Shown here: in pieces, positions 13,647 through 51,072 of the stretch
Layout: each line of letters starts with the position of its first letter
Numbering within the stretch: position 1 is the stretch's first letter
Assembly (NCBI GenBank): GCA_963796955.1
Contig: CAWCNJ010000005.1
Location: 160,001-224,000, forward strand
Direction: 5' to 3'
Length of the DNA stretch: 64,000 nucleotides
Origin: Endomicrobiales bacterium
GTDB lineage: Bacteria > Elusimicrobiota > Endomicrobiia > Endomicrobiales > JALOBY01
Notes under the pieces: generated by a model
Told to the model about the DNA's origin: nothing
Seen by the model: the letters and a program-made list of their open reading frames with translations, nothing else
The model's database searches: none
Program-made: the position numbers and the translations under genes

Positions 13647-13684
13647 TACGGATTCAGACTTAAGTAGCTTGAGTAAATTGACTT
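13647..13684 (+). repeat. Degenerate solo copy of the left end of the HUH-transposase element
   Basis: 34/38 identity to 29375-29412. Confidence 0.8.
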
Positions 13685-13726
13685 ATTTGGAAGGAAGTGA
13701 GTAGAAGTATACATACCGCCCTTTGT

Positions 13727-13755
13727 TTGAGAAAATTCTTAAAGAATGCTATACT
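13727..13755 (+). promoter_or_regulatory. Sigma70-type promoter upstream of the tRNA fragments (near-identical copy at 17985-18013)
   Basis: TTGAGA-17 bp-TATACT with extended TG. Confidence 0.7.
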
Positions 13756-13881
13756 GCCACCGATGGTAAATATGTGTTTTGTACAAGCTGGGATCAAGAA
13801 TAGACACCCAGTGGACAACCAGTGGTTTAGACCGGAAAATAGCCAAGCTAAAAAAAGCATTGAAAATACAACAAGATAAGC

Positions 13882-14025
13882 ACAAATGGAAGGATGGGCG
13901 CGTGTTGCGACGAACAGGAGCAACGAGAAACGCGCGGGCACCGCAGCAGAGCGAGGATGCCCCGGACGAGACAGAAAGTCAGCGTAAGCTTAGAAGATAG
14001 CGTAACAAATGGAAGGATGGCCGAG
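13882..14025 (+). repeat. 144-bp direct repeat identical to 18059-18202 (leader, structured insert, tRNA 5' end)
   Basis: Base-by-base comparison. Confidence 0.9.
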
Positions 14026-14126
14026 TGGGCCACAGTGCGACGAATAGGAGCACAAGCTTGTGGCGGGCGCTTGATGAAAACGCACCGGAACCACATCCTG
14101 GACAGACTGTAACGAACGTAGTGAGT

Positions 14127-14165
14127 GGAAGGATGGCCGAGTGGTTTAAGGCGCTAGTCTTGAAA
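14127..14165 (+). pseudogene. 5' half of tRNA-Ser(TGA) ending at the anticodon loop (att-like junction)
   Basis: 38/39 identical to 18188-18226; ends in CTTGAAA. Confidence 0.9.
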
Positions 14166-14318
14166 TCCTCCCGACGGTAAAACAGCAATTCCGACGACAA
14201 CCCCAAATCCCACGTTTTACCGACGACAAAAGCCATCTTGCGCATTAATGACAACCTTGCATGCTTGTACCCATTTGTAACCCAAATGGACACCTACTGG
14301 ACACCTGATAGACACCTG

Positions 14319-14348
14319 AAACCTTGATAGAAATATCAGGGTTTTTTT
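14319..14348 (+). terminator. Rho-independent terminator
   Basis: AAACCTTGAT..ATCAGGGTTT hairpin plus T-run. Confidence 0.6.
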
Positions 14349-14775
14349 AATCCGTTGGCCCCATTACGTATAAGTTTACCAACGTTTTTCCCAATTACTG
14401 TGTAATTGTAAAACGTTGGAACGTCAACAAAAACGGAATTGGTATGTCAAGGGGGAGGGATACAGGGTGTTTGAGACGTAGAGCTATGTATCGGCCTTAT
14501 AAAAACAACTTCTAGTTAAACATATAGAGGTCACAGGCAATTTTTCAGTAAAAACGGCACGGAATAGGCAAAAACATGGACGCGCCTATTTCGACGTAAG
14601 GAGTTATGCAAAATGTCGTAACCTTAAAGTCCAAGTCCGTGGTGAGATCATTGAAGTGCCATGTCAGTTGTCAAAACGCTATCATAGAGGTACAATACAG
14701 CTAGAAGATCATTTCTATTGGGGAGAAAATCATAAATCATCGGAACATCCAATAGCAAATGTGGCGTAAATATAG

Positions 14776-14913
14776 CAATACGTAGAGGACTTTAATAAAA
14801 TTCCTGATGACGAATGGTATAAATTCATCCAGGCAAATACCAGTTTCGCAAACTGGAATGAGATGCAGAATAAAGCGGCGGGTGAGTGGGGTGCGAAAAA
14901 GATGGGCCTGTAA
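14776..14913 (+). pseudogene. C-terminal remnant of a small hypothetical protein
   Basis: Startless frame VEDFNKIPDDEWYKFIQANTSFANWNEMQNKAAGEWGAKKMGL* ending 8 bp before the next ATG. Confidence 0.45.
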
Positions 14914-17863: not shown

Positions 17864-18187
17864 ATAGGCCCCTTTTTATATATTCCCCTTTTAGACACAT
17901 ATAATAAAGGGAATATATCTATTACCTTTATAGCATACGCTATCAAATATTGCAATGATTACGATTAGTACATCCGCACGTTTCTTGAGAAAGTCCTTAA
18001 AGAATGCTATACTGCCACCGATGTTAAATATGTAGTATGCCTGCTCTGAAAGATTTGTACAAATGGAAGGATGGGCGCGTGTTGCGACGAACAGGAGCAA
18101 CGAGAAACGCGCGGGCACCGCAGCAGAGCGAGGATGCCCCGGACGAGACAGAAAGTCAGCGTAAGCTTAGAAGATAGCGTAACAAAT

Positions 18188-18275
18188 GGAAGGATGGCCG
18201 AGCGGTTTAAGGCGCTAGTCTTGAAAACTAGTGTAGGGTTATACTCTACCGGGGGTTCAAATCCCTCTCCTTCCG
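18188..18275 (+). tRNA. tRNA-Ser(TGA), CCA not encoded
   Basis: GGAAGGA/TCCTTCC acceptor stem, CTAGT-CTTGAAA-ACTAG anticodon arm, long variable arm, GGTTCAAATCC T-arm, G discriminator. Confidence 0.95.
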
Positions 18276-18475
18276 TTGTTTTTTGTCTGGGCCACGGGCC
18301 CATACAAAAAACAACTAATTGGCCAGGGATTTGAAGCTGACCCGACCGCTGCCGCGTAGGCAGAAAAAGGGAGGGCAGCCGATTGCGGGTGAGGGTACGA
18401 AGTACCCGATGGAGCAAAAATCCCTCTCCTTCCGTATCATTTTTCAATCAGTTTTGAGTTGTAGAAATCGCACCT

Positions 18476-18597
18476 AAAAACACCCCGTTTTACCGTCTTG
18501 TGTCCGATTTGTGACGTGTCGTTGCGTCACAAGCCTAAAAAATGCAGAAAATCATAAAAATCTTACGCTCACTTTTTAGTGACCGTAGGATTTTTTT
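18476..18597 (+). repeat. ~120-bp att-proximal block (putative arm sites plus terminator), second copy at ~34947-35067
   Basis: Shared AAAAACACCCCGTTTTACCGTCTTGTGTCCGATTTGTGACGTGTC...AAAATCTTACGCTCAC..GTGACCGTAGGATTTTTT. Confidence 0.85.
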
Positions 18598-18663
18598 GTT
18601 GCCGAAATCCCCTCACCCGTTTACTGTGTTAGTAGGAAGTAAAATCGAGCAAGGGAGAAAAAC

Positions 18664-19404
18664 ATGGGCAACCAGCAAATAGTTTTCAGGGAGTACACTA
18701 AAGATATATTCCCAATCTTCAACGGCTACGGCGTTGCCATCCACACAATCGCGGCATCATGTAAAGATCCAGCCAAAGCTGTAATAGAACATTCTTTCGG
18801 CCGCGATGAGGGCTTAAATGAATTTGTTGAGCTAGGTGATATTATCGAAGCATACAGACTGGGCCTGAACAATATTCAGCCGTACAAGAATCGCGACTAC
18901 TCGTTTATTATAAACAACGGTAACGCACCAGACGAACAGGTAATGTTTAAAGAAATAAAAACTACGTCCGCCGAAAAGAAGTTTCAACTAAAGTGGCAAA
19001 CTTCCTTCGGAAGGAAAAAGCGGGCAACCTACAGCTGGGGCTGGATGAACAGGGTAATGTTCAGCTCATACACCGAAACCATGGAGCAAAGCAGCAGCCT
19101 TAAACTAAATTATCCTACCGGAAAGCTGAAGCTGCGTATATTCCTGCCAAAGCTATTTCCGCTGGACGAAAACCCATGCCTTGAAATGCAAAATTCCAAA
19201 GGCCAGAAGGCCAGGCTGCGCATTACAAACGAAGTAGGAGTTCTAAAAGAAGACATAGGCTTCAGCCTAAAAGTTAAGGAAGACTTTAAGTGCTACCAAA
19301 TCGAGATCTTCCGCCCCAACGTCAATGAAACCTACAAAATCACATGGTCGATGGGTGTAAAAGCCCTACCAAAGTATCTGGCCTGGCTTGAGTCCAGGGT
19401 ATAG
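18664..19404 (+). CDS. Hypothetical protein
   Basis: 246-aa ORF with GGGAG RBS. Confidence 0.65.
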   Translation: MGNQQIVFREYTKDIFPIFNGYGVAIHTIAASCKDPAKAVIEHSFGRDEGLNEFVELGDIIEAYRLGLNNIQPYKNRDYSFIINNGNAPDEQVMFKEIKTTSAEKKFQLKWQTSFGRKKRATYSWGWMNRVMFSSYTETMEQSSSLKLNYPTGKLKLRIFLPKLFPLDENPCLEMQNSKGQKARLRITNEVGVLKEDIGFSLKVKEDFKCYQIEIFRPNVNETYKITWSMGVKALPKYLAWLESRV

Positions 19405-19413
19405 GAGCTACTT

Positions 19414-19644
19414 ATGCATATAAAAGCGATAGTGTTGTTAATGGAAGCCCCAACACAAAACAAAAGCGTTTTGCCCACCCGCGAAGATTGGGCATCCCTG
19501 CGCCAAGCAGTAAAGCAAAAGACCGGCTATAACGAAGATGAGGCCGTCCAAGACTACATCATGGACAAGCTTGGCACCCAAAACCTGCAACTTGTCTCTG
19601 GCCAAGAAGTAAGGCAGCTAATCACACTACTAAAAGCAGCGTAA
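19414..19644 (+). CDS. Hypothetical protein
   Basis: AGGAG RBS, operonic spacing. Confidence 0.5.
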   Translation: MHIKAIVLLMEAPTQNKSVLPTREDWASLRQAVKQKTGYNEDEAVQDYIMDKLGTQNLQLVSGQEVRQLITLLKAA

Positions 19645-19668
19645 TCAAAGCGAACCAGGAGATATCAA

Positions 19669-20055
19669 TTGAAAAGACAACTTGAACAAAAACTCCTTAA
19701 AAGATTTTCCGGACTATTTAAAAGCACCACGCTGTATTGTGAGTGCAGTGATGGCTGGTATCACATTTTGTGGCGAATATTTGAGCAAATAGAGGAATCG
19801 TTGAAGAAGGAAAACAAGGGGTTTTGTGATCAACTATTTATTCACCAGGTCAAAGAAAAGTTTGGCAGGCTAAAAATATACATGTACGGAGGAAACGAAT
19901 CGATTAACAAAATAATCCAGCAAGCCGAAGCCGATTCCCGCAAGGTCTGCGAGCTATGTGGCAAACCCGGAAAATTACGAAGTATAAGGGGCTTACTGTC
20001 TACGTTGTGCGATGGTTGCTGTACCAAACTCCAAAAGCGTCGCAACCGGCTCTAA
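19669..20055 (+). CDS. Phage-like hypothetical protein with Zn-finger-type Cys pairs
   Basis: DGWY, QVKEKFG.L, CELCG, CDGC; AGGAG RBS before TTG. Confidence 0.65.
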   Translation: MKRQLEQKLLKRFSGLFKSTTLYCECSDGWYHILWRIFEQIEESLKKENKGFCDQLFIHQVKEKFGRLKIYMYGGNESINKIIQQAEADSRKVCELCGKPGKLRSIRGLLSTLCDGCCTKLQKRRNRL

Positions 20056-20160
20056 ATTGTTGAAATATCATCTCTAAAGAGGTATCATAATCTAGACGGA
20101 TGAAGCCATAATTGGGGAATTAATGTATCATCAACATACAAGTACGATATAGCAAAGATT

Positions 20161-20187
20161 AAAACCACCTTCAAGGGTGGTTTTTTG
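20161..20187 (+). terminator. Intrinsic terminator directly upstream of hsdM
   Basis: AAAACCACC-TTCAAG-GGTGGTTTTTT. Confidence 0.7.
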
Positions 20188-20223
20188 TAGTTTTAATAAG
20201 CTTAAAATAATAAAGGAATATCA

Positions 20224-22605
20224 ATGGCGATTAAAAAATCACAACTCTATAGTTCAATCTGGAAAAGCTGCGATGAACTTCGCGGCGGGATGGATGCGTC
20301 TCAGTACAAGGACTATGTGCTGGTGTTGTTGTTTATCAAATACATCTCTGATAAATATGCCGGTGTTTCGTTTGCGCCGATAACGGTTCCTAAAGGCGCA
20401 AGTTTCAAGGACATGGTTGCGCTAAAGGGAAAGCCAACCATCGGTGATGATATTAACAAGAAGATTATCCAGAAAATTGAGGAAGCAAACAAGTCACTGG
20501 GCAAGATATCAGTAAATTTTAATGATCCAGAAAAGCTGGGTAGTGATAGTGCAATGGTTGATAGACTGACTAGGCTTATTGCAATATTTGAGAATCCCGC
20601 ACTCGATTTCAGTAAAAACCGTGCGGAAGGTGATGACATTCTTGGCGATGCCTATGAATACCTGATGCGACACTTTGCCACAGAAAGTGGTAAAAGCAAA
20701 GGACAATTCTATACGCCTGCTGAGGTTAGCCGAATTATTGCCAAGATTATTGGTATTGCTAGTACTACTAACAAAACGCCGACGGTGTATGACCCCACGT
20801 GTGGTTCTGGATCATTGCTGTTAAAAGTGGCAGATGAAACAGACAAGAATGTAAGGCTTTTTGGACAGGAAAATGAAGGCCCTACCGCCGCTTTGGCACG
20901 CATGAATATGGTTTTGCATAATAATCCAACAGCGGTCATCGAGAAAGAAAATACCCTAGCCACCCCACTATTTAAAGATGGGGATCAACTTAAAACGTTT
21001 GACTTTGTGGTAGCCAATCCGCCATTCTCCTACAAATCGTGGAGCAACGGCGTTAATGCAGAGAATGACCCTTTCGGAAGATTTCAGGGCTTTGGCGTAC
21101 CTCCTACAAAGAATGGTGACTACGCGTTTCTGCTCCATATAATCCGTTCAATCAAGACCACTGGTAAGGGTGCGTGTATTCTGCCTCACGGTGTGCTGTT
21201 TCGCGGCAATGCCGAGGCCGAGATACGAACCAACATCATCCGTCGAGGCTACATCAAAGGCATAATAGGTCTGCCAGCAAACCTTTTCTATGGCACGGGC
21301 ATACCTGCTTGTATTATCGTGATAGACAAGGAAAATGCCGACAATCGTAAAGGTATCTTTATGATAGATGCCGGCAAAGGTTTTGAAAAAGATGGCAACA
21401 AAAACCGCCTGCGTGCCCAGGATATTCATAAGATCGTTGATGTGTTCAATAAACAGATAGAAATACCCAAATATTCGCGCATGGTAAGCGTTGTTGAAAT
21501 TGAGAAGAATGAGTTTAACCTTAACATCCCGCGCTACATTGATAGCCAGGAGCCAGAAGACATACAGGATATCGAAGCACACCTGAAAGGTGGCATCCCA
21601 AATCAAGATATTGCTGACCTTAATAATTATTGGGATGTATATCCAACTCTTAAGGCTTCGCTGTTTAAGTCGAGCGAGAGAAAAGGATATAGTGCGCTAA
21701 AAATCACCCAGGAAGAGATTAAGTCTAAAATATTCTCTCACCCAGAATTTACTGCATACGCCAAAACAATGGAAGCAACATTCGACGCATGGAGAACGAA
21801 AAACACTGCTGTTCTCAAAAAGCTTTCGGTTGATGCTATACCAAAGAAAGTAATCCATCAAATATCCGAACATCTACTGGACACTTTCAGTAAAACAAAG
21901 TTAATTGATAAGTACGACATTTACGAACACCTTATGGAGTACTGGGCAGCAACCATGCAAGATGATATGTACTTGATAGCCGCCGATGGCTGGCATGTCG
22001 TGCTTGCTCCCGTTGAAGGCAAGAAGGGCGTGCTAGAGTGTGACTTGGTTCCTAAGTGCCTTGTTATCAATCGCTATTTCTCCAAAGAGATGAAGGAAAT
22101 AGAGGAACTGCATCTCAAGTTGGACGCCACCGCACGTGATATGGAAGAACTTGTCGAAGAGCATAGTGGTGATGATGGATATTTTGCAGACTTTGAGAAA
22201 ATCAATAAAGCAAGCGTCTTAGAGAGAGCCAAAGAAATTAAAGGCAAGAAAGCAGATATTGCCGAACTTGAAGTAATGGAAAAATATCTTGAGATTAGTG
22301 CAACTGAGTCTGACACCAAGAAGAACCTCAAAGAATCTGAAAAGGCAGTTGAGGCAAGCGTAGTTGCTAAATATGAAATGCTTACAGAACCAGATATCAA
22401 GATACTGGTTGTTGAAGATAAGTGGATGACAGCTCTCGAACAGGCAGTTCATGGTGAAATGGATCGTATTAGCCACCGGCTTAACGGCCGCATTAAAGAA
22501 CTTGCTGAACGCTATGAAACGCCAATGCCAGCACTCACCACTGAAACCGAATCACTTGCCAACAAAGTAGATGAACACCTCAGAAAAATGGGGTTTACGT
22601 GGTAA
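20224..22605 (+). CDS. hsdM: Type I R-M methyltransferase subunit
   Basis: GQFYTP, YDPTCGSGSLL, ANPPF, PHGVLFRG. Confidence 0.95.
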   Translation: MAIKKSQLYSSIWKSCDELRGGMDASQYKDYVLVLLFIKYISDKYAGVSFAPITVPKGASFKDMVALKGKPTIGDDINKKIIQKIEEANKSLGKISVNFNDPEKLGSDSAMVDRLTRLIAIFENPALDFSKNRAEGDDILGDAYEYLMRHFATESGKSKGQFYTPAEVSRIIAKIIGIASTTNKTPTVYDPTCGSGSLLLKVADETDKNVRLFGQENEGPTAALARMNMVLHNNPTAVIEKENTLATPLFKDGDQLKTFDFVVANPPFSYKSWSNGVNAENDPFGRFQGFGVPPTKNGDYAFLLHIIRSIKTTGKGACILPHGVLFRGNAEAEIRTNIIRRGYIKGIIGLPANLFYGTGIPACIIVIDKENADNRKGIFMIDAGKGFEKDGNKNRLRAQDIHKIVDVFNKQIEIPKYSRMVSVVEIEKNEFNLNIPRYIDSQEPEDIQDIEAHLKGGIPNQDIADLNNYWDVYPTLKASLFKSSERKGYSALKITQEEIKSKIFSHPEFTAYAKTMEATFDAWRTKNTAVLKKLSVDAIPKKVIHQISEHLLDTFSKTKLIDKYDIYEHLMEYWAATMQDDMYLIAADGWHVVLAPVEGKKGVLECDLVPKCLVINRYFSKEMKEIEELHLKLDATARDMEELVEEHSGDDGYFADFEKINKASVLERAKEIKGKKADIAELEVMEKYLEISATESDTKKNLKESEKAVEASVVAKYEMLTEPDIKILVVEDKWMTALEQAVHGEMDRISHRLNGRIKELAERYETPMPALTTETESLANKVDEHLRKMGFTW

Positions 22606-23798
22606 CGAATACTTTGGTTAAAAAAGGTTACAAGAAGACTGATGTGGGATTGATCCCCGTCGATTGGTTTGTTAAAAGGTTTGTTGATGTTACTAAAATC
22701 ATAACATGTGGCTTAGCCGCGACTCCCAAATATGTAAGTGAGTCGACAGGTAAACCATTTCTTTCAGCCCAAAATGTTCAAAATGGCAAAGTCGTTTATA
22801 GCAAATATCGATATATCTCAAAAGAGTTGTTCGAACAAATTACAAGGCACAATAAACCACAAAAAGGTGATTTGCTGTACACTCGCGTAGGTGCTGGAAT
22901 TGGCGAAGCTGGCGTGGTTGAAGATGATTTTGAATTTGGAATATATGTCAGTTTGTCATTAATAAGAGCTGATAAAGTTCAGTTACATAATTATTATTTG
23001 CTTCACTTACTGAATAGCCCGAAATTCAAGCTTCTTGCAAAGAGCGGTCAGTTGGCTGGAGGCGGCGTTCAAAACTTAAATGTTCATGTTGTTCGTGAAT
23101 ATTTGATTCCACTTCCATCACGTAAAGAACAAGCTGCCATTGCCAAGGTCCTTTCTGACACCGATGCACTGATTGAAAACATTGATAAACTGATTGCCAA
23201 AAAAAGGGATATCAAGTTAGGAACAATGCAACAGGTGCTAACTGGGTCGAAAGGAATACAAGGGTCTGGTGGAAAGTGGGATGTAAAAAGACTGGGTGAT
23301 ATTGCGGAAATACGGAGGGGGCAATTAATCACTGAGAGCACACGGTGTGAGGGCAGCATACCGGTAATTGCTGGCGGAAAGACTCCTTCATATTATCATA
23401 ATCAAGCAAATCGTAATGGCAAGACGATCTCTGTTAGTTGTTCGGGTGCTAGTGCGGGATATGTTTCTTTTCACACTACCCCAATATTCGCATCAGATTG
23501 CTCTACAATTGAAGAATTAGAAACATACTCAGTTGAATTTCTGTATCATTCCATGAAGTTTAGGCAAGAGGATATATACAAAATGCAAACTGGTGGTGCT
23601 CAACCCCATATTCACTCCAGAGATTTAAAGCCAATCAGTATGCTCATTCCGCCGCTTAGCGAGCAAAATGCAATTGCCAACATTCTTTCCGATATGGATG
23701 CAGAAATTGAACAACTGGAACACAAACGAGATAAATATATAATGATCAAGCAGGGCATGATGCAGCAACTATTAACGGGGAGAATTCGGTTAGTATGA
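22599..23798 (+). CDS. hsdS: Type I R-M specificity subunit
   Basis: Two TRDs with PLPS..EQ..IA and PPLSEQNAIA spacers, MQQLLTG. Confidence 0.95.
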   Translation: MVTNTLVKKGYKKTDVGLIPVDWFVKRFVDVTKIITCGLAATPKYVSESTGKPFLSAQNVQNGKVVYSKYRYISKELFEQITRHNKPQKGDLLYTRVGAGIGEAGVVEDDFEFGIYVSLSLIRADKVQLHNYYLLHLLNSPKFKLLAKSGQLAGGGVQNLNVHVVREYLIPLPSRKEQAAIAKVLSDTDALIENIDKLIAKKRDIKLGTMQQVLTGSKGIQGSGGKWDVKRLGDIAEIRRGQLITESTRCEGSIPVIAGGKTPSYYHNQANRNGKTISVSCSGASAGYVSFHTTPIFASDCSTIEELETYSVEFLYHSMKFRQEDIYKMQTGGAQPHIHSRDLKPISMLIPPLSEQNAIANILSDMDAEIEQLEHKRDKYIMIKQGMMQQLLTGRIRLV

Positions 23799-26344: not shown

Positions 26345-29300
26345 TGTTGGTCAAATTGAGCGTATAACCCAAAACCGTGTTGTAGCCTTGTTTCGAGATC
26401 AGCTTGATTATAAGTATCTTGGAAATTGGGAGGATCAACCTAACAATAGCAATATTGTGGAAGCCGAGGTCAGAAAGTATTTGACTGGGCGTGGGTATAG
26501 TGATGCTTTGATAGCACGTGCATTGGACAAGCTGCGTGATGCGGCCAATAACTATGGAGAAAGCCTATACACAAATAACCAGAATGTATATAAGCTTCTC
26601 CGATATGGCATTGGTATTGTAGAAAGTGCAGGAGAAAACCATGAGCAAGTGCACCTGATAGACTGGAAGCATCCTGAGAAAAACAATTTTGCTATAGCTG
26701 AAGAAGTAACAATTATGGGAAACCGCGAAAAACGGCCCGACATAGTGTTGTATGTAAATGGCATTGCTATTGGTGTGCTTGAACTGAAACGTAGCACCGT
26801 ATCCATAGGTGACGGTATACGCCAAAGCATAGTCAATCAACAAAAAGAGTTTATAGAGTCTTTCTTCTCAACAGTACAGTTTGTTTTCGCAGGCAACGAT
26901 ACCGAGGGTCTAAGGTATGGAACAATTAAGACCCCAGAAAAGTATTTTTTAAACTGGAAAGAAGACGAGCAGAATAGTAGTATGCTGCAGTTGGACAAAT
27001 ACCTGCTTAAAATGTGTAACAAAGAAAGACTGTTGGAAATAATATACGACTTTGTGCTTTTTGATGGCGGCTACAAAAAGTTGCCACGGCCACACCAATA
27101 CTTTGGTATTAAAGCAGCACAAGAATATGTCCGCCGGCGTGAAGGCGGCATAATATGGCATACGCAGGGTAGCGGTAAAAGCTTAGTAATGGTTTGGCTT
27201 GCAAAGTGGATTCTGGAAAACAACCCAAATGCTCGTGTTGTGGTGTTAACAGATCGCATTGAGTTAGACAAACAAATTGAGCGTGTGTTCCGTGATGCCG
27301 GTGAGGTGGGGATTAAGCGTACTATAAGCGGTACTGATTTGATGGGACAACTTAGCCAACCGTTGCCGCGCTTGCTGTGTTCCCTTATACATAAGTTTGG
27401 TGTGAGGGATGTGGCGAACTTTGATGCATATATTAAAGAGCTGCAGAATGCGCCTAGCAGTACTGTGGGTGAGCTGTTTGTGTTTGTTGATGAATGTCAT
27501 CGGTCTGAGTCTGGCAAACTGCATAAAGCTATGAAGGCGATACTCAGGAATGCGGTATTCATAGGTTTTACGGGTACACCGCTTCTTAAGAAGGACAAGC
27601 AAACAAGCAGGGAAGTTTTCGGTAAATATATTCACACATACAAATTTAACGAGGCTGTAGAGGATGGGGTTGTATTAGATTTGGTGTATGAAGCCCGCGA
27701 TATTGATACGAAATTATCATCAAACGATAAAGTGGATGCATGGTTTGAAGCAAAGACGAAAGGACTTAATGACTTTCAAAAACATGAGCTCAAGAAGAAG
27801 TGGGGTACGATGCAGCAAGTACTCAGCTCTAAATCGCGCTTAGATAAGATTGTACAGGATGTGGTGTTTGATTTTAGCACTAGGCCGCGCCTGAGTTCAG
27901 ACTTCGGGAATGCGATAGTGGTTGCAGGTAGCATTTATGAAGCAACTAGATACTTTGAGATGTTTCAGAATACCTCACTTAAAGGCAAATGTGCCTTGAT
28001 TACCTCGTATAACCCTGCCACAAAAGATATTACAACCGAAGGCACAGGTGACAATACAGAAACTGGCAAAGAATACGTGTATAAAATGTACACTGCATTG
28101 TTGAACGATGTTGTGGCAGAACCGGGTAAAACTAAATCTGAAACGTACGAAGATAGGGCTAAACTGAAGTTTATTACTGAGCCCGCAAATATGAAACTGC
28201 TTGTCGTTGTTGATAAGCTGCTGGTAGGATTTGATGCGCCGCCATGTACTTACCTTTATATAGATAAGAATATGCAGGATCATGGCTTGTTTCAGGCAAT
28301 TTGCCGCGTGAATCGGCTGCATACGGAAGATAAGGACTTTGGATATATTGTTGATTACAAAGATTTATTTTCTAAACTCGGTGATGCATACAAGGTATAT
28401 GCAACGGAATTGGATGACCTCGGAAATGACACAACAAATATTGATATTGTGTTAAAGGATAGGTTGGCAAAAGGCAAGGAACGGTTGGACGATGCTCTGG
28501 AAGCTGTTGCCCTTGTTTGTGAGCCTGTGTTGCCTCCAAGGGACAACCTGGCCTACATTCACTATTTCTGCGGTAATCCAGAGAGTAAGCAAGACCTTAA
28601 GGATACCGAGGTAAGACGAAATGCATTGTACAAGAATACTGTTGCCCTGATACGCGCCTATGCCAATATTGCGGATGAGATGAGCGAAGCCGGCTACAGC
28701 ACCAGCGAAATTGACGGTGTTAAGAAATCACTAACTAAATATTTAAATCTCAGAGAAGAGATTAGGATGGCTAGTGGGGAAAAGCTTGACCTTAAGACCT
28801 ATGAAGCTGATATGCGGCACTTGATTGATACCTATATTCAGGCCGAGGATAGCAGGCGAATAGATCCATTCGAAAATCAGTCTCTGCTAGATATTATGGT
28901 TAATAGCGGCATTGCTGATGCCATAAAAAGCCTTCCTGATGGTATACGAAGCAGTAAAGAAGCAATGCAGGAGACGATTGAAAACAATGTACGCGTTAAA
29001 ATAATTAAAGATCATTTAATTGACCCGGCGTACTTTGATGAGATGTCTAAGCTATTAAACGAAATTATACGAGAAAGAAAAGAGAAGGCGGTAACGTATG
29101 AGGAATACCTGAAAAGGATTGCCGAATTGGCAAAACGCGTTGCCAATCTTACACGGAATGATTTGCCGGCTCGTATACAGACGGGAGCGCAGCGGGCCTT
29201 ATACGATAATCTTGAAAGAAAGACTGAGCTGGCAATAGATGTTGATACCTCAGTAAGAGAACATGTGCGTGCTGATTGGCGTGGGAATGTGCCTGCGGAA

Positions 29301-34495: not shown

Positions 34496-34508
34496 TTGTG
34501 CAAGGAAG

Positions 34509-34793: not shown

Positions 34794-34849
34794 CTTGAAA
34801 ACTAGTGTAGGGTTATACTCTACCGGGGGTTCAAATCCCTCTCCTTCCG
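34794..34849 (+). repeat. attR-like 3' half of tRNA-Ser starting at the anticodon loop
   Basis: Identical to 18220-18275. Confidence 0.95.
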
Positions 34850-41193: not shown

Positions 41194-41196
41194 TAT

Positions 41197-42994: not shown

Positions 42995-43311
42995 AGCAGA
43001 ACCCCGCCTGTCCATGCCATCCTCCCTTACCAGCAATATTCCCACATTCTGCCAAAACCGCCGCCGCCCTTCAATACAACCAACTGATCGTTTTCACCCT
43101 GCCGCGCCCCGACCAGTTTTTCTTGAATTACCCGTCGCGAAGAGGTACAATTAGCCTATGCAAGCACCCAGGGGAGAAGCGAACAACTACAAGGACGCAT
43201 AATTCAGGCCACACGGCACTATTAGCCGGGTGGTTTTTGTTGGTGTAGGTCAATACTTCATTACTTAACAACGTCCCGGAGTTCCACGTTTGCGCAGCAA
43301 CGGTAAATCAA

Positions 43312-43587
43312 GTGAGAAAACGCGATACAATTTACGCTCTAAATGAGTCTTGCGTAATCAAGTTGTCTTTTGACATAACAAAAAATCGTACTGCTGCCGA
43401 AATTTCTGTTAAGGTTATACGAGAAACCAGCAAGTTGATGAATCTGATGGCGTACGTCAACAAAGCGGACAGGCTTAAGGTCCCGCTCGGCCCGCAGTAC
43501 GGCAAAATACGGCAAGAGATCGCCCGCGCACCGGACATCGTAAAGTTGCTGCTGGGGATGAATTGCGATGGGGAACCCAGGGAATAG
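43312..43587 (+). CDS. Hypothetical protein or fragment
   Basis: 91-aa ORF only. Confidence 0.3.
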   Translation: MRKRDTIYALNESCVIKLSFDITKNRTAAEISVKVIRETSKLMNLMAYVNKADRLKVPLGPQYGKIRQEIARAPDIVKLLLGMNCDGEPRE

Positions 43588-43633
43588 GTTAAGTAAATAT
43601 AGCCTGACATCTTAAATTAGGAGAGTAATTCAC

Positions 43634-43954: not shown

Positions 43955-44128
43955 CTCAGCGCGCCAAAAAGACTTCGCCGTGCTTGTCGAAGACATCGAC
44001 AAGATCAGGAAGGAAGTGAACTTGCTGAGAAAGAAGATGAAAAAAGACTGATTGCAAAAGCTGTGCGCGATCAAGGGTGAAATATAAAAACCAGACATTC
44101 ATGAACTGCGAACTAGTCAAAAAGTCAA

Positions 44129-44171
44129 GTCTGACACCGGCACACCGGCACACCGGCACACCGGCACCGGC
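44129..44171 (-). repeat. Solo element-end motif GTCTGACACCG with an 8-bp tandem stutter
   Basis: ACACCGGC x4 (44134-44165) plus a partial copy. Confidence 0.85.
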
Positions 44172-44802: not shown

Positions 44803-45459
44803 ATGCACACCATCCAACAGCAGTTGCTTGCCTTGTCTAAAAAGAAAAATCTGGCGCAGTTAAGTTTGCGAGAAATGGCAAATCATATCGGAATGCCAGG
44901 CGAATCTCCTCAAAAAATAAAGCATCATCTTATGCAGTTAGAGAAAAAAGGGTTTTTGAACATTGATCGTGCTACGGGCAAGATGGATCGTTCTTCGGCC
45001 TCTCCTGGATGGGCCCAGGGACTATTACAGACGACCTCAAATATTTTTTCAATTCCTGTCATCGGCACTGCAAATTGTGGTCCTGCCACTATCTATGCTG
45101 AGCAGAACTTTCAAGGCTTTCTACGTGTTTCAAGCAGGCTTGTGGGACGTTCAAAACCTAAAGGTTTATATGCAATCAAAACAAGCGGCTCTTCGATGAA
45201 TAGGGCAGAAATTAACGGAAAGCGTATTGAAGACGGCGATTATGTAATAATTGATAGCCTTGATAAAACTCCTCATACCGGGGATGTGGTTGTTGCGATT
45301 GTAGATAATAAAGGGACAATTAAACGTTTTATAGATGATAGAGAAAATGGACAAGTTGTTCTTCGTGCAGATTCGTCCTTCGATTATGAACCGATCTATC
45401 TTCATCCAGATGATGATTTCAGCATAAGCGGAAAGGTTATTGGCATAATAAAGAATTAA
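44803..45459 (+). CDS. LexA/CI-like repressor with S24 peptidase domain
   Basis: N-terminal wHTH, ANCG cleavage site, GSSM serine, TIKR lysine. Confidence 0.85.
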   Translation: MHTIQQQLLALSKKKNLAQLSLREMANHIGMPGESPQKIKHHLMQLEKKGFLNIDRATGKMDRSSASPGWAQGLLQTTSNIFSIPVIGTANCGPATIYAEQNFQGFLRVSSRLVGRSKPKGLYAIKTSGSSMNRAEINGKRIEDGDYVIIDSLDKTPHTGDVVVAIVDNKGTIKRFIDDRENGQVVLRADSSFDYEPIYLHPDDDFSISGKVIGIIKN

Positions 45460-45541
45460 ATTACAGGGCTTGAAATATGCTATAATCCATTTAGTTTATG
45501 TGTTATAGCCTTCAAGTCTAAAAGGGTTGAAGGTGAAAAAA

Positions 45542-46579
45542 ATGAAAAAAATGCGAAAAAAAATTATTCTTTCCGAGACACCAGCAAAAACAATTCGATT
45601 TGTCGATTTGTTCTGCGGCATAGGGGCATTTAGGCTTGCCATTGAATCAGCGAGCAGGGGTCTTAACATCATACCGGAATGCAAATTCTCTAGCGATATT
45701 GATCCCAATTGTCAGAAACAGTATAACGATAATTTCAGTGAGTTTCCTAATGGCGATATAACGAAAGTAGCTGCCGAAGATATACCAGATCATGATATTC
45801 TCTTGGCAGGCTTTCCGTGCCAACCATTCAGTATTATTGGCAATATGAAAGGTTTTGCGGATATAAGAGGCACACTGTTTTTTGATATTGCAAGAATAAT
45901 TGAAGCTAAAAATCCCCAAGCTTTCGTGCTTGAAAATGTGAAACTTCTGAAAGGACATAATGAGGGGCGCACGATTTCTCGAATTATGGAGACTTTACGG
46001 GATTTAGGATATCATGCGGATTATAGGGTATTCAATGCGCTTGATTTTGGCTTGCCGCAGAAGAGAGAAAGAATTTTTATAGTTGGTTTCAAAAATCCAT
46101 GTTCATTTGAATGGCCTGTTGGCAATGTGCCGATGAAGCCTCTTTCGAAGATTTTAGAAAAGAATGTATCTAAACAACATTACGCTTCCGAAAGAATACG
46201 GCAAAAGAGGCTCAAGCATTTAAAGCCTACAAAAGAGCCAATGATCTGGCATGAGAATAAAGCTGGTCACGTAAGCGCATATCCGTACTCATGCGCACTA
46301 AGGGCGGGAGCATCCTATAACTACTTGTTAGTTAACGGGGAAAGAAGATTAACTCCTCGTGAAATGTTTAGATTGCAGGGTGTTCCAGATTCTTATAAAA
46401 TCATATGCAATGATTCGCAAGCTAGAAAACAAGCTGGCAATAGTCTGCCGGTTCCTATGGCGGAAGCAGTGATAAGGAATGTTCTAAAGTCGCTTGGGAA
46501 AGATGACAAAAGTTATCCGTTATCGTATCCCTCAATCGAGAAACAATTATTTTGGTGTGAGAATCCAATAAACCCATAA
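45542..46579 (+). CDS. DNA cytosine-5 methyltransferase
   Basis: DLFCGIG, GFPCQPFS, ENV, PQKRERIF, QAGNS. Confidence 0.95.
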   Translation: MKKMRKKIILSETPAKTIRFVDLFCGIGAFRLAIESASRGLNIIPECKFSSDIDPNCQKQYNDNFSEFPNGDITKVAAEDIPDHDILLAGFPCQPFSIIGNMKGFADIRGTLFFDIARIIEAKNPQAFVLENVKLLKGHNEGRTISRIMETLRDLGYHADYRVFNALDFGLPQKRERIFIVGFKNPCSFEWPVGNVPMKPLSKILEKNVSKQHYASERIRQKRLKHLKPTKEPMIWHENKAGHVSAYPYSCALRAGASYNYLLVNGERRLTPREMFRLQGVPDSYKIICNDSQARKQAGNSLPVPMAEAVIRNVLKSLGKDDKSYPLSYPSIEKQLFWCENPINP

Positions 46580-47313
46580 TGAAAGGTCCTAAGCTCAGGA
46601 TTGTAGACAAATACGGTGCTCCATATCCATTGAACAAGTTTCCTAAAGATTTTGCTTACAACTTAGGAAGAGAGATAGTTTATTTTCTTGCATCAAGAGG
46701 CACTCCAAGACTGGAAGGCACTGATTGGGAAGAGATTTTTGCCAGATTGGTTGGCGCGCAATGGAAACCCTCCAACGTTGGGCTTGATGATATTATTTCT
46801 GGTAAGACAGCTTGGGGCGCAAAAACCGTTAAAAATGCTAACCCATTTAAGGCTTCAGCAATTCGTCTAATATCTGGCCGCAATTCTCCCATTTATTCTT
46901 TTGGAGCTGGTGAAATAGTTAATTGCGATCCCGATGAATTAGGCAAGCAAATATTGGCAATATGGAACGCGCGTGTAGCTGAAGTGCGCTGTGCTTTCAA
47001 AAATCTTAGAACAGTCGTACTGATTAAATCCGACGATTTGCTCGAACTTTCTGCGTATGAATTTAATACTGAAGAGTTTTCTCAAGAAGGTTATTATTGG
47101 GAATGGAATAAAAATAAAAATTTAACTGGATTTGACGCAAAGACGAAAGAACACATCTTTACATGGCAACCTCACGGCTCCCAGTTTACAGTGCTAGAAA
47201 AAGTTCCTGAACAACGAGTTGCAATCCGCATTAAGAAACCTCCCAAGTTAGATAAAGAAACCATCCTCAAAACCCTCAAGTTTGACAACTCCTGGATACA
47301 GGTAATTAAATAG
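46579..47313 (+). CDS. Putative type II restriction endonuclease
   Basis: Coupled between the MTase and Vsr genes; WEEIF..LDD..WGAKTVK PD-(D/E)XK-like pattern. Confidence 0.65.
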   Translation: MKGPKLRIVDKYGAPYPLNKFPKDFAYNLGREIVYFLASRGTPRLEGTDWEEIFARLVGAQWKPSNVGLDDIISGKTAWGAKTVKNANPFKASAIRLISGRNSPIYSFGAGEIVNCDPDELGKQILAIWNARVAEVRCAFKNLRTVVLIKSDDLLELSAYEFNTEEFSQEGYYWEWNKNKNLTGFDAKTKEHIFTWQPHGSQFTVLEKVPEQRVAIRIKKPPKLDKETILKTLKFDNSWIQVIK

Positions 47314-47319
47314 CTTTCT

Positions 47320-47733
47320 ATGGACAATGTTTCTCGACAAGAGCGTTCTCGTATAATGTCTCTTGTTCGATCGAAAGGAAACAAATCCACTGAGCTCAAG
47401 TTTGTTACATTACTAAAAGAAAACGGTATTAAGGGGTGGCGAAGATCCTACAAATTGACAGGGAATCCTGATATCGTTTTTCCTAAGAATAAGATTGCTG
47501 TTTTCATTGATGGTTGTTTTTGGCATAGTTGTCCGGTTCATTTAAGATTACCGTTCGACAATAGGGTATACTGGAAGGGAAAAATTGCTCGAAACGTAAA
47601 AAGAGACAGGCTAATTGTCAAAACACTGAGGGCAATGGGGTGGCGCGTAATAAGATTTTGGGAGCATGAATTAAAAGGTTCAAATAGATATGGCCTGGCA
47701 AAGTTAAATAAAATTAATTTGCTGATGAAATAG
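47320..47733 (+). CDS. vsr: Very short patch repair endonuclease
   Basis: MD......RSRIMS, PDIVF, FIDGCFWH.CP, N..RD, GWRVIRFWEHE. Confidence 0.95.
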   Translation: MDNVSRQERSRIMSLVRSKGNKSTELKFVTLLKENGIKGWRRSYKLTGNPDIVFPKNKIAVFIDGCFWHSCPVHLRLPFDNRVYWKGKIARNVKRDRLIVKTLRAMGWRVIRFWEHELKGSNRYGLAKLNKINLLMK

Positions 47734-47777: not shown

Positions 47778-48120
47778 TGCGGGACGCCCTTAGGCAATAA
47801 GGTATTGAATTAGCGGCAATCGGGGACGTTGAAAAAGGCAACGGGGTCACCTATTGAGGAAGTTGTCAAGTAGGTGATAACAAAAAATAAGGTGCGCCTT
47901 GCACCGTCGAAATAGTAGTAGATGTGTCCGTGCTGCAAAGATGTAACTATTTGGAACCCGTTTGGCTATCTCAAGAAGCTCCCCGATAGTTGGGGACTTC
48001 AGTCACCTATCGGCAGCGTTCGACGAAGCGAACCTCCAAAAGGCAACGGGGTCAGCCCTTGAAACCGGGAAGTTGGGGTCAGAAACCGGGAAGTTGGGGT
48101 CAGGCCTCAACTATTGACAA
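47778..48120 (+). repeat. Cluster of GGGGTCA and GGGAC motifs including a 21-bp tandem
   Basis: GGGGTCA at 47843, 48048, 48075, 48096; GAAACCGGGAAGTTGGGGTCA x2 at 48061-48102. Confidence 0.8.
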
Positions 48121-48160
48121 GACAATTTGATTGGAATACTGAAGTTGTTAGAAGATACGA

Positions 48161-48634
48161 TTGAGGGAGAACGTGAAAAACAAATTTATTTCTGAATCTT
48201 TGTCCCACATATTTAAAGGCATCGATGGGCTCAAGGCGGCCTTTCCGGATTCTAAGCGGCAGTTTACCATTGATGGCCGTTTGGTAGGAGATATCGGCGA
48301 AGTATTGGCCGCGGTTGCATATGACATCATACTTGATGAAGTGTCGCAGCCAAAGCACGACGGCACAACCTCCGACAATCGCAGAGTACAAATAAAAGCA
48401 ACCTTCCAAGACCACCTCACGTTTAGCTCTATTCCTGATTATTATTTAGGTATTGCAATTGATAAAGATGGCCGATGGGAAGAAATATACAATGGACCAG
48501 GTAGATACATTGCTGAGAGATATGCGGGCAGAAAAGGTATTGGTTCGAATTTTCTAAGATTTCCCAACAAAGATCTTCGTGAGATATCGACTAAGATCCC
48601 CACGAACGAACGCATAAATAAGAGAAATATATGA
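48161..48634 (+). CDS. Restriction-endonuclease-like protein (DUF6998-like)
   Basis: FTIDGRLVGDIGEV, HDG, VQIKAT. Confidence 0.65.
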   Translation: MRENVKNKFISESLSHIFKGIDGLKAAFPDSKRQFTIDGRLVGDIGEVLAAVAYDIILDEVSQPKHDGTTSDNRRVQIKATFQDHLTFSSIPDYYLGIAIDKDGRWEEIYNGPGRYIAERYAGRKGIGSNFLRFPNKDLREISTKIPTNERINKRNI

Positions 48635-49197
48635 AGAACAGCAATGTTGTATTCCTGGACCTTGAAACCACCGGTGTTGCACCGAAATTCGATAAAATTG
48701 TTGAAGTAGGATTGATACGGGTTGAAAAGGGCAAGGTAGTAAAGAAATACAGCCAGCTGGTAAAACCTCCATTTAAAATACCTTTTGCTGCTCAAAGTGT
48801 TCACGGCATCAGCGACGCTATGGTGAGAGATATGCCTCCTATTAAAGAAATCAAGAGCGAACTCGCCGAATTACTTAGAGACGCCTACATAATAACGCAT
48901 AGCACGAATCATTTTGATATGCACTTCCTGAGGAATTCGTTGGGCGAAAACTTTGTTGATATGGCTAAACATATAAATCTCTTATTCTTATCAAGAAAAT
49001 TGGATAAGGAGTTCACTAGTCACAAGCTTGAAAGTGTGGCAACAAGGTATTCGGTAAGGCTTAAAGATCAGCACAGAGCACTTTCAGATGCCAACACAAC
49101 TTATGAGTGCTTCGTAGGATTGTGTAAAAGACATAACATCGATGATATTAATAAAATTGTTGCCCTCTTGAGAGTGAAAGCCAGGCGAAAAGAGTAA
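48631..49197 (+). CDS. DnaQ-like DEDDh 3'-5' exonuclease
   Basis: DLETTG, VHGI, H...FD, HRALSDA. Confidence 0.9.
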   Translation: MKNSNVVFLDLETTGVAPKFDKIVEVGLIRVEKGKVVKKYSQLVKPPFKIPFAAQSVHGISDAMVRDMPPIKEIKSELAELLRDAYIITHSTNHFDMHFLRNSLGENFVDMAKHINLLFLSRKLDKEFTSHKLESVATRYSVRLKDQHRALSDANTTYECFVGLCKRHNIDDINKIVALLRVKARRKE

Positions 49198-49227
49198 GAT
49201 ATCGGAACAGGCGGTTCATAAAGGGTA

Positions 49228-49255
49228 CGGTGTCAGACCTAAGTGACTTAAGTAA
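49228..49255 (+). repeat. Solo element-end copy
   Basis: CGGTGTCAGACCTAAGTGACTTAAGTAA, 26/28 to 29377-29404. Confidence 0.85.
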
Positions 49256-49355
49256 CTCGCCAGGGGATGTTCGGAGTGAGTTAACTAGTTAGCGGTAGTT
49301 GTGTAATTATAAAGTTGTACTTGACATTTGCACAGACGTGTGGTACTATTCTTGT

Positions 49356-50516
49356 ATGATAATAACGCGCGAGATAAATAAAGAGTTGCTGTGTTCCGCC
49401 AAGAAATATCCCGTGGTTACCATCACGGGGCCCCGCCAGTCTGGAAAAACCACCCTTGCAAAAACCGCATTCCCCAAAAAGCCATATTTTAGCATGGAGG
49501 ACCCTGATGTTCGCGAGGCCGCTATCGGTGACCCGCGTGGGTTTTTTGCCGGCCTTAAGGGCGGGGCGGTTATTGATGAAATACAGCGCGCGCCGGTGTT
49601 GTTGTCATATATTCAGGGCATCGTTGACAAAACGGGGAAAACCGGGCAATTCATTCTTACTGGCAGCCAGCAGCTTGAGTTGGCCGGCACCATTTCGCAA
49701 TCTCTGGCGGGCAGAACCGCGATGCTTAAACTTCTGCCGTTTTCCATTGCGGAACTTTCCCAGATGCGGAAACAGCCGCAGGTTGATGATATGCTCTTAA
49801 GCGGTTTTTATCCCAGGGTACATGAGAAAAAGATACAGCCGGCAAAAGCTTACCGGGATTATTTTGAGACCTATATTCAACGGGATCTTAGGCAGCTGAT
49901 ACAGATAAAAGACCTGCACCTATTCCAAAAATTTGTCAGGCTGTGCGCGGGCAGGATAGGCAGCATATTTGTAGCTAGCAATCTTGCTAATGAGGTTGGG
50001 GTCTCTATTACTACCATACAATCATGGGTCTCTATACTAGAAGCTTCCTATATAGTATTTTTGCTGCAGCCATATTACGAAAATATAGGAAAACGGCTGA
50101 TTAAATCTCCAAAAATGTATTTTTATGATGTTGGCGTAGCGTCATATTTGCTGGGCATTGAAAATGTTACGCAAATGATGCGTGACCCGTTGCGCGGATC
50201 ATTAATAGAGAACCTGGTGCTTATGGAATTGGTGAAAAAACGGTTGAATGCCGGATTGGATCCCGCGTTGTATTTTTATCGAGACAGCCATCAAAACGAA
50301 GTGGATGTTGTTTTCAAGACCGGGAATGAACTGGTTCCTTATGAAATAAAATCCGCCCAAACATTCCAAATGTCATGGTTCAAGCAGCTTAATTATTTCT
50401 CAGGTGTATTTGCTGGCCGTGTAAAGCGCGGTTATGTGGCCTACACGGGCGAGCACGAACAGAAGATTGGAATATTTCAGCTGATCAAATACAGTAACGC
50501 AGCAAAGTCGCTATAG
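49356..50516 (+). CDS. AAA_14/DUF4143-type ATPase
   Basis: GPRQSGKTT, IDEIQ, LTGSQ, EVDVV..EIKS; TTGACA-17-TACTAT promoter. Confidence 0.9.
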   Translation: MIITREINKELLCSAKKYPVVTITGPRQSGKTTLAKTAFPKKPYFSMEDPDVREAAIGDPRGFFAGLKGGAVIDEIQRAPVLLSYIQGIVDKTGKTGQFILTGSQQLELAGTISQSLAGRTAMLKLLPFSIAELSQMRKQPQVDDMLLSGFYPRVHEKKIQPAKAYRDYFETYIQRDLRQLIQIKDLHLFQKFVRLCAGRIGSIFVASNLANEVGVSITTIQSWVSILEASYIVFLLQPYYENIGKRLIKSPKMYFYDVGVASYLLGIENVTQMMRDPLRGSLIENLVLMELVKKRLNAGLDPALYFYRDSHQNEVDVVFKTGNELVPYEIKSAQTFQMSWFKQLNYFSGVFAGRVKRGYVAYTGEHEQKIGIFQLIKYSNAAKSL

Positions 50517-50545
50517 AGTATCGGTGTCAGACGAGATCATATTAA

Positions 50546-50901
50546 ATGAAGACAGGCATTTATAAGAACATTGTAGTTATTATTGCACTCGTGGGGCTTG
50601 GCGGCTGCGCGACAGTTTTTAACGACCAGGAGCGAAGTGACTTGGTGCGTCTTGAAAACAACGGTGATTCCGCGCTTTTGCAAAACAAGGCGGTTACCAG
50701 AAGCATATTACTTGCTCATTTTAAGAAATGGAAGGGCACAAAGTACGTATACGGCGGCTCGGGTAGAAATGGCATTGATTGCTCGGGATTCATCTACCAG
50801 GCATTCTTATCAGAGTTTGGCATACAACTGCCCAGAGAAAGCATCGTACAGGGCGAAGTCGGCTACGATATTCCCGTTGAACTTCTTCAGCCGGGTGACC
50901 T
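50546..50901 (+). pseudogene. Truncated duplicate of the NlpC/P60 gene
   Basis: Near-identical to 51073-51428; lacks the catalytic His region. Confidence 0.85.
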
Positions 50902-51072
50902 TGACAATCAGGGACGTTGTCAAGATGTCAAGATACTGAATAGTTCGACCATAGCACTAAGGCAGGAATTATTTGAAACGATCGTTTCCTGTCCGGTAGG
51001 CGGGCTGAAACTCAACGGGGTCAGCTCTTGAAACTGGAAGCAGTGGAATAGTGTCAGACGAGATTGTATTAA

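Follow-up and report, generated by a model that had tools for sequence, protein, structure and literature searches.

Polarised ends of TIRYT elements between accessory genes and inside giant proteins of Elusimicrobiota: a possible aid to gene and domain shuffling without an integron

TIRtrons and their TIRYT enzymes were described by Di Nocera, De Gregorio and Rocco (2013; PMC3733652) and have been equated with subclass 2.1 of the TnpA-Y1 transposases (Quentin et al. 2018; PMC6006769). Among Y1 HUH enzymes this subclass ranks second in size and occurs in 14.9% of strains (PMC6006769). Statements about published work refer throughout to those parts of the cited papers that were covered here. 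A TIRtron has a Y1 HUH gene, encoding an enzyme with a DnaA-C-like helix-turn-helix (HTH) tail, and terminal inverted repeats (TIRs) that are not of REP type, while solo, dimeric and clustered copies of the repeats are moderately abundant elsewhere in the genome. The sequence GGGGWSAS occurs in many, though not all, TIRs, and the remaining TIRs are unrelated (PMC3733652). We have analysed a stretch of 64,000 nucleotides (the window) which is part of contig C5 (CAWCNJ010000005.1, positions 160,001 to 224,000) of the 2.1-Mb, 81% complete genome of an Endomicrobiales bacterium (GCA_963796955.1). It carries a TIRtron at 29377-30326 and solo copies of its ends between accessory genes. An original prediction, made from the sequence of the window, had taken these ends for the recombination sites of an integron-like system of defence cassettes driven by a HUH enzyme. 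This framing is too strong; the polarity rules of the ends, together with the joints that they form in giant proteins, make the enzyme family testable, and TIRYT enzymes may help to shuffle genes and domains, though not in the manner of an integron. The TIRYT family and its solo repeats are already in print. New are antisense, in-frame ends at the module ends of giant proteins, the co-orientation of elements at gene 3' ends, and iterated termini. The covered parts of PMC3733652 and PMC6006769 contain no polarised multi-clade stacks, gene-3'-end rule, iterated termini, giant-protein ends or activity test, and no paper was found on TIRYT activity, on cassette arrays built by ends or on giant-protein ends, with the limit that Figure 9 or the Additional files of PMC3733652 could list the A-type end described below.

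The proposal that the motif belongs to a HUH (Y1) transposase element was borne out by the match of the encoded enzyme to PF01797 (E 4.7e-15), whose catalytic motifs align with those of intact homologues, and by the complementarity of the two arms (27/28). Compared with an intact homologue, the window gene has one base fewer at about 29935 and is broken by this frameshift in the present assembly; its N- and C-terminal pieces are 57% and 36% identical, respectively, to the intact 289-residue protein of locus L138. The Bac_DnaA_C domain matches five of six tails of A-type enzymes (E 4e-6 to 0.06, all under the curated cut-off), as well as the tail of the B-type enzyme L004 (E 4e-7). An AlphaFold model of the intact orthologue L138 (pLDDT 83.7, nine-row alignment) has TnpA-REP (4ER8) as its best structural match. 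By domain layout and ends, we assign 29377-30326 to the TIRtrons and its enzyme to TnpA-Y1 subclass 2.1. The same A-type end is found on the intact homologues L138, L151, L155, L158 and L227, and two intact TIRtrons elsewhere in the genome, on contigs C4 and C6, have ends of another type (B).

Two related groups of Y1 enzymes were considered. RAYT/TnpA-REP enzymes with their REP, BIME and REPIN repeats (PMC8266576; Bertels et al., bioRxiv 10.1101/119735) resemble the window enzyme in fold and have short non-coding repeats near gene ends, sometimes in frame within genes; TnpA-REP forms a 5'-phosphotyrosine and transfers the strand through a 3'-OH (PMC8266576), and RAYT group 1 is the most IS-like of the RAYT groups (Bertels et al., bioRxiv 10.1101/119735). 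In contrast, the window ends lack a GTAG-tagged hairpin and fold without significance, the enzyme has an extra HTH domain, and the copies are few, stem from several clades per genome and, at most sites of this genome, are single polarised ends instead of doublets. The window enzyme scored 74.7 bits against the RAYT profile NF047646 (cut-off 80), and a RAYT/REPtron (subclasses 2.2 and 2.5) was rejected on account of the unfolded ends and of only about nine strong A-type copies per genome. With IS200/IS605 the locus shares a Y1 HUH core, the lack of a target duplication, a strong orientation bias and AT-rich bases conserved just outside the end, but IS200/IS605 elements have subterminal hairpins and enzymes of about 140 residues, whereas here the ends are inverted and unstructured, TnpB is missing and the enzymes have 290-335 residues. 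This assignment was also rejected, the score against NF033573 being far under the cut-off.

Comparison of 53 Y1 loci showed that each end consists of a terminal core followed by direct repeats of about 9 bp. The core reads G|GTGTCAG[AG]C in A-type ends, GGGGACG in B-type ends (the GGGACGTTG family) and GGGGTCAG in D-type ends, and there is a fourth type, F. The type follows enzyme similarity, with A-type ends on elements whose enzymes are 45-75% identical to that of the window and B, D and F ends on more distant ones. While B, D and F ends fit the published GGGGWSAS, the A-type end, with core GGTGTCAG, reads [CT]GGTGTCAG and has one difference from it. The ends had been supposed to be short and structured; however, 10 of 11 stretches folded no better than shuffled sequences (z from +0.45 to -1.6), and hairpin ends were rejected. 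The sole exception was the B-type end at 50911 (z -2.3), where the flank is complementary to the end's own first inner repeat (50894-50925). A similar mirroring, of the inner sequence of A-type ends, is seen in the integrase target at 30330, and from these two sites it is possible that targets are chosen by end-like sequence. A loose GGGGAC pattern was dropped (15 matches vs 23 in the control), and another end pattern, close to its control (9 vs 8), was given no weight.

In the window, CGGTGTCAGAC occurs exactly at 29377 (+), 30316-30326 (-), 44129-44139 (-), 49228 (+) and 50522 (+), and seven matches were found when up to one mismatch was allowed, against 0.56 expected. The motif coordinates of the original prediction were exact on recount, as were the identities of 34/38 between the stretches at 13647 and 29375 and of 26/28 between 49228 and 29377. 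Its solo copies at 13649, 44139 and 49228 are real ends, while those at 50522 and 51051 are cores only; they score 12 and 10 bits, respectively, without the inner repeats of about 9 bp, whereas the other copies reach 20-33 bits. With matrices trained on the ends of other genomes and of the two intact B elements of this genome, 20 genome matches of at least 20 bits were obtained, compared to one for reversed matrices. Eight of these 20 lie within 13.6-51.6 kb, that is, 1.8% of the genome (binomial 1e-9), and the solo copies are thus concentrated in the accessory island. A 10-bp match in hsdM at 22308 (score 0.4) and matches at 23153 and C8:412792 were put down to chance.

The original prediction saw one family, but B and D ends share the same gaps, and the stacked ends of the window come from at least three enzyme clades and have one polarity. 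Of the terminus words, the 14 between 47781 and 51685 all lie on the plus strand and the three between 43277 and 44137 all on the minus strand; six fall in a single gap of 427 bp, where 0.12 were expected per strand. The terminus at 44139 lies 664 bp from the LexA-like gene, and the claim that it borders the LexA/restriction-modification block is overstated. Pairs of ends arranged inside out, whose outer termini enclose genes, were also observed in three other places (L144:6109-7648, G003:C2:125524-130229 and G007:C45:8092-9185), which share this topology with the LexA-restriction-modification-vsr block of the window.

The ends lie in an island at 12.3-51.7 kb with a low G+C content (0.42-0.49 vs about 0.51), which carries Type I and Type II restriction-modification genes, Fic genes and two AAA_14-DUF4143 ATPase genes matching the PADLOC candidate PDC-S01; the NlpC/P60 genes were without a PADLOC match. 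As predicted, ends follow the stop codons of the two ATPase genes, at 26-28 bp and 5 bp, and both NlpC/P60 duplicates begin at the core, with the repeated unit starting exactly at GTGTCAGAC (50524-50901 = 51051-51428, 97%). Termini coincide with breakpoints, namely the hsdR truncation, the integrase remnant, the start of the NlpC duplicate and the cut of NlpC copy 1. To this extent the motif does mark module edges, but only 8 of the 26 junctions of 12.4-52 kb in the analyst's gene list carry the A motif (10 of 26 counting all end families), and none of those at 14.9-29.3 kb or 30.4-43.0 kb does. Between 49228 and the second ATPase gene, a sigma-70-like promoter was found at 49321-49349 (10/12), in a scan whose total of 8 does not exceed the 7.1 of shuffled sequences. 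Of the two copies that were said to bracket this gene with its promoter, 49228 and 50522, the latter has no inner repeats. The features are listed in Table 1.

Table 1. Coordinates of the element, end copies and neighbouring features in the window
Feature	Position	Strand	Remarks
Solo left-end-type copy with the element's -35 box	13649..13691	+	after AAA_14-DUF4143 gene 12379-13620; outer flank of iterated short units
tRNA-Ser island	18187..34849	+	56-bp att pair 18220-18275 = 34794-34849; carries Type I restriction-modification locus and TIRtron
Type I hsdR	26226..29432	+	left end of the element in place of the last few codons; PADLOC model aligned over 1-1026 of 1034
TIRtron	29377..30326	+	A-type terminal inverted repeats of 28 bp around a Y1 HUH transposase gene; no target duplication
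TIRYT, N-terminal part	29441..30037	+	PF01797; HUH motif NHIH, Tyr motif YIHLNP
TIRYT, C-terminal part	29950..30306	+	second frame; DnaA-C-like HTH, weak match (E 0.013)
Tyrosine integrase, C-terminal half	30328..30893	+	begins 1 bp past right end; N-terminal half absent upstream
Solo B-type end (GGGACGTTG family, as on two intact TIRtrons of the genome)	43253..43278	-	25.1 bits
Degenerate solo A-type end	43585..43611	-	18.6 bits
Solo A-type end, terminus 44139	44110..44169	-	3.5 iterated 8-bp terminus units outside (44140-44169)
LexA-like gene, C5 methylase, open reading frame of no assigned function, vsr	44803..47733	+	between outer sides of minus- and plus-strand stacks
Six same-strand B and D (GGGGTCAG) ends or fragments	47781..48121	+	between vsr and DUF6998; 21-bp tandem duplication across 48096 terminus
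Solo A-type end (26/28)	49228..49255	+	30 bp past DEDDh exonuclease gene; upstream of promoter of AAA_14-DUF4143 gene 49356-50516
Terminal core, no inner repeats	50522..50532	+	start of truncated NlpC/P60 copy 1
Solo B-type end	50910..50935	+	near-identical to ends of intact element C4:417-1491; NlpC copy 1 stops 9 bp before
D-type end fragment	51017..51037	+	between NlpC copies
9-bp terminal core only	51051..51059	+	start of complete NlpC/P60 copy 2 (51073-51588)
B-type end	51597..51700	+	9 bp past NlpC copy 2 stop; then weaker terminus words at 51643 and 51685

Across the elements compared, 36 of 42 intact left ends had a neighbouring gene that could be scored, and 34 of these 36 faced a co-oriented gene at its 3' end, at a median of 7.5 bp from the stop codon. 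No target duplication above chance was detected in 50 intact elements (4 or more nt: 4 vs 3.5 by permutation). Nevertheless, the two ends of an element resemble each other in the 5 nt outside the core (2.68 vs 2.08 in permutations, maximum 2.44), and therefore the true end is probably located some bases further out. A fragment of the terminus in the same direction was present in the outer 44 nt of 31 of 173 distinct strong ends (shuffle mean 5.7, maximum 13), compared to 7 in the opposite direction. Many of these fragments can be read as short iterated units that all start at the same outer point but differ in how far they reach inward, as at 44140-44169 and 48063-48104.

Giant modular proteins of Omnitrophota and Elusimicrobiota have been described (bioRxiv 10.1101/2023.11.21.568195; 10.64898/2026.06.07.730766), with several thousand residues, a conserved N-terminal scaffold and shuffled kinase, APH, HAD, radical SAM and GH94 domains. 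In the covered main text, the former does not mention transposition, recombination or shuffling, and the latter mentions no inverted repeat, HUH enzyme or shuffling and treats transposases solely as flanking genes or mobile cargo. When a matrix was built from the window copies alone, its four strongest matches outside the training set fell inside two giant open reading frames (ORFs) of 3049 and 6489 codons. All four are antisense, in frame and read ..LVKSDT|, and two stand directly before kinase and APH domains; hence the claim that every solo copy is intergenic holds in the window only. A set of giant ORFs (90 stretches, 1.02 Mb, 61 regions; 60 hand-chosen among the 150 matches listed, plus this genome) gave 19 matrix matches, 16 of them antisense, with all eight A-type matches antisense and in one frame; reversed matrices gave 4 matches and codon shuffles 13 over three runs. 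In the Elusimicrobiota set, 13 of the 16 antisense in-frame matches fall where a segment in common with a paralogue ends (from -10 to +40 residues around the segment end, with no hand-picking), a zone that covers 12.7% of residues. On a hand-assembled list of 19 sites, made of 15 of the 19 matrix matches (four weak ones were dropped) and four added by hand, 15 were at module ends vs 2.0 at random. In alignments the end abuts the last helix of the shared module, and in L200 a Rossmann domain begins 2 residues past the terminus.

Genome-wide patterns in eight relatives yielded 87 matches, vs 3 in the control. Of the 77 with loci, 22 are ends of elements and 45 are solos between genes or at gene edges; the other 10 lie within ORFs, nine of them in giant ORFs and one as a chance match. 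One long ORF of the Omnitrophota genome G401 contains two solo ends that are antisense and in frame. The other copies in G401-G403 (30 of 32 matches with loci) are mostly doublets like REPINs, and one such doublet is in frame in an ordinary gene. Antisense in-frame solo ends in giant proteins are thus known from five Elusimicrobiota genomes and one Omnitrophota genome. In the 6489-residue protein (G000:C5:83357-102826), of two copies of an internal repeat (residues 2040 and 3864), one ends in ..KYLTT and the other in a B-type end read as ..DYLTTSL; the former is possibly an old end that has decayed synonymously.

The reading that we tentatively favour, with a confidence just short of even, is a strand-polarised, one-ended joining of ends, sometimes with neighbouring DNA, as one contributor among several. 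The solo copies would be traces of TIRYT reactions at such ends. The C-terminal HTH would bind the inner repeats of about 9 bp, the HUH/Tyr centre would nick one strand a few bases outside the GTGTCAG or GGGGAC core, and the fixed terminus would be joined to a target, preferably one directly downstream of the stop codon of a co-oriented gene or on the outer side of an older end. Each of the two ends may act largely independently, and therefore there would be no target duplication, flanks would often be deleted and the inner breakpoint would vary. One-ended products would range from stubs of 7-30 bp up to an end with adjacent DNA, and repeated rounds by several invading TIRYT clades would build polarised stacks between accessory genes, while an in-frame right-end product would leave a joint at the module end of a giant protein. 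IS91/ISCR elements and Helitrons have one fixed and one variable end, capture or duplicate adjacent DNA and make no target duplication. The iterated termini, the missing target duplication and the NlpC duplicate would fit one-ended capture of this kind; those elements, however, use Y2 or Rep-helicase enzymes and unlike ori and ter ends, whereas here a single-Tyr Y1 enzyme has two like ends. By this analogy, the best model is closer to one-ended rolling-circle capture than to an integron. A wider version, in which subclass 2.1 Y1 enzymes are generalist one-ended shufflers that attach a fixed end, together with any DNA behind it, to gene ends and older ends, and in Elusimicrobiota and Omnitrophota build polarised defence arrays and add or swap enzyme modules of giant proteins in frame, seems unlikely to us; in it, the right end would be translated as a joint peptide (..LVKSDT|, ..VKPDT|, ..LTPSP|, ..NEPVP|).

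Alternatively, the ends may be passive scars: TIRtrons and doublets or stubs resembling REPINs or miniature inverted-repeat transposable elements would insert at gene 3' ends, decay and move no cargo, persisting where selection is weak (accessory islands, linkers of giant proteins) and so marking hot spots. We consider this a serious rival, at clearly less than an even chance. Inward-facing mini-elements of 40-215 bp do exist (L142, L143; G401-G403); an ordinary gene (L370) holds one in frame and a giant gene (L200, residues 559-614) holds another, and in-frame REP insertions in linkers are on record (PMC3733652). The end-marked boundaries are generic module ends, homology of the second ATPase gene begins at its promoter, most junctions are unmarked, and the intergenic solos divide evenly into left and right ends. 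Such scars would, however, leave unexplained the antisense bias of 16 of 19, the sense strand also having an open frame, as well as the mostly single ends abutting a module end, the iterated termini, the genes truncated at termini and the duplicate that starts exactly at the core.

Several observations weigh against the one-ended joining that we favour. The NlpC unit is without the inner repeats that are supposed to bind the enzyme, no intact A- or D-type enzyme was found in this 81% complete assembly, and the intergenic solos split into 36 left-like and 34 right-like copies, as from whole elements that have decayed. Strong ends are carried by only about 14 of about 501 module-boundary clusters of giant proteins, and weak matches are not enriched at the boundaries (4/13 and 3/38); a large population of decayed ends there was not found. 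A homologue continues alongside a third protein at one of 12 end-marked boundaries vs 46 of 208 unmarked ones. All homologues diverge at end-marked boundaries anyway, and these are therefore not shown as new breakpoints, so that their status as derived breakpoints is unsupported. Furthermore, the giant-gene sites come from about nine proteins of five related genomes and are not independent.

Integrons have a platform of IntI, attI and Pc, and folded attC sites. The window resembles them in its arrays of co-oriented accessory or candidate defence genes punctuated by a repeated site, and in the integron-like reading the HUH enzyme would recombine direct copies in trans and move defence cassettes as circles. 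Ends in direct repeat do bracket single genes (49228/50522 in the window; YhcG in L142; an M28 peptidase gene and a transposase gene in L138), many neighbours are PADLOC candidates, and one giant ORF has three direct copies in the same frame (residues 202, 1596 and 2307), so a deletion between them would keep the frame. Nonetheless, we regard this reading as improbable. There is no IntI, attI or Pc platform and no single integration site; several site families of mixed clades are present, cassette borders and inner junctions vary, the bracketing copies are unequal, the local gene is frameshifted, and 18 of the 26 junctions are without the motif. The half integrase gene scores 53 bits against TIGR02249 (cut-off 265), and folding against shuffles, with no attC model applied, revealed no folded attC-type sites. 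Taken together, the claim of a single-motif integron-like system was not supported.

Relatives were used to look at the borders of such units. A two-repeat pattern was present in 11 of 401 genomes of the phylum (26 matches vs 2 in the control), of which four matches in ordinary genes of G310 and G318 look like chance, and a metagenome scan gave 10 distinct loci with ends. In these relatives, solo ends flank AAA_14-DUF4143, AbiE, YhcG or ParDE genes or form mini-elements. The only genome of the same family has no motif match and no Y1 gene, and there is no close relative to align across the window. A homologue of the second ATPase gene (49356) with 84% identity, L150, has two co-oriented A ends upstream, but the sequence shared with the window starts at the promoter and not at the end-repeat; therefore the ATPase cassette has no fixed boundary, and a fixed cassette of end, promoter and ATPase across genomes was rejected for L150. 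In G046, a left end, a transposase gene and a right end, followed by the gene of an M28 peptidase and by a further left end standing alone, come between two genes that are direct neighbours in 7 of 8 other genomes. The downstream gene of this pair is presumably csaB-like. The arrangement would fit capture, and also two separate insertions at gene ends. A general tie between AAA_14-DUF4143 genes and ends was rejected, as ends lie near only three of the eight DUF4143 genes of the genome. In the same genome (G000), two tandem DUF4143 genes at C9:11915 and 13257 are each preceded by the same sequence of about 30 bp, outside the four end types.

The tRNA-Ser att pair (Table 1) accounts for the central 16 kb of the island independently of the motif. 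It could be argued that the island arose mainly through tRNA-targeted integrases and host recombination, with the short ends serving at most as microhomology; the att pair, the integrase remnant, a duplicated tRNA upstream region and long direct repeats at the 12-41 kb junctions speak for this. This would explain the central part; the polarised stacks at 43-52 kb, the iterated termini and the giant-gene ends would be left without an explanation, and we hold it to be very improbable as the main source. The region 13710-14165, directly behind the solo end at 13649, repeats the upstream region and the 5' half of tRNA-Ser (17969-18276) in a degenerate and partly triplicated form. Direct repeats of 43 bp at 12316 and 14255 bracket the first ATPase gene and this tRNA-Ser-derived copy, and other pairs of 43-52 bp are found at end-free junctions (33550-33643, 33714/35117, 37385/41197 and 53042/56177). 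The 70 bp upstream of tRNA-Ser (13896-13965 and 18073-18142) are 86% like a stretch of the tRNA-Glu/tRNA-Lys spacer of contig C2, and may be a tRNA leader or a small RNA.

The locus and its relatives supply substrates (end sequence, polarity and target rule) and intact enzymes for a family of untried activity. If the ends carry neighbouring DNA, they would represent an unrecognised route of defence-island growth, a first mechanism for domain gain in the giant proteins of Elusimicrobiota and Omnitrophota and possibly a small tool for strand-specific joining of DNA. As passive scars, they would still be markers of recent insertion that map the tolerant linkers of giant proteins.

Some further observations were made on related elements and on the surroundings. 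In G004 (C25:133613-139719; L282, L283), two A-type ends face inward at a distance of 6.1 kb; neither has a transposase nearby, and they form a candidate non-autonomous element with passenger genes. At the start of contig C4 (C4:1-822, L002), the intact B-type TIRtron has its left end and 5' part copied in tandem over 411 bp, which would be due to one-ended duplication or to an error of assembly. In the second intact TIRtron (C6:72979-74159; L004, L352), the right end is interrupted by an insertion sequence, which we take from its ends and ORFs to be IS3-like; the same insertion sequence adjoins solo ends at C4:330402-331757. A 13-kb block occurs twice in one contig of G310 (C3; L140, L141), 73 kb apart, and is probably an assembly duplication. 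Finally, in a block of the window with a G+C content of 0.58, the genes for a polyprenyl synthetase (2869-3683) and a TPP enzyme (3705-5508) are fragmented, by decay or by assembly indels.

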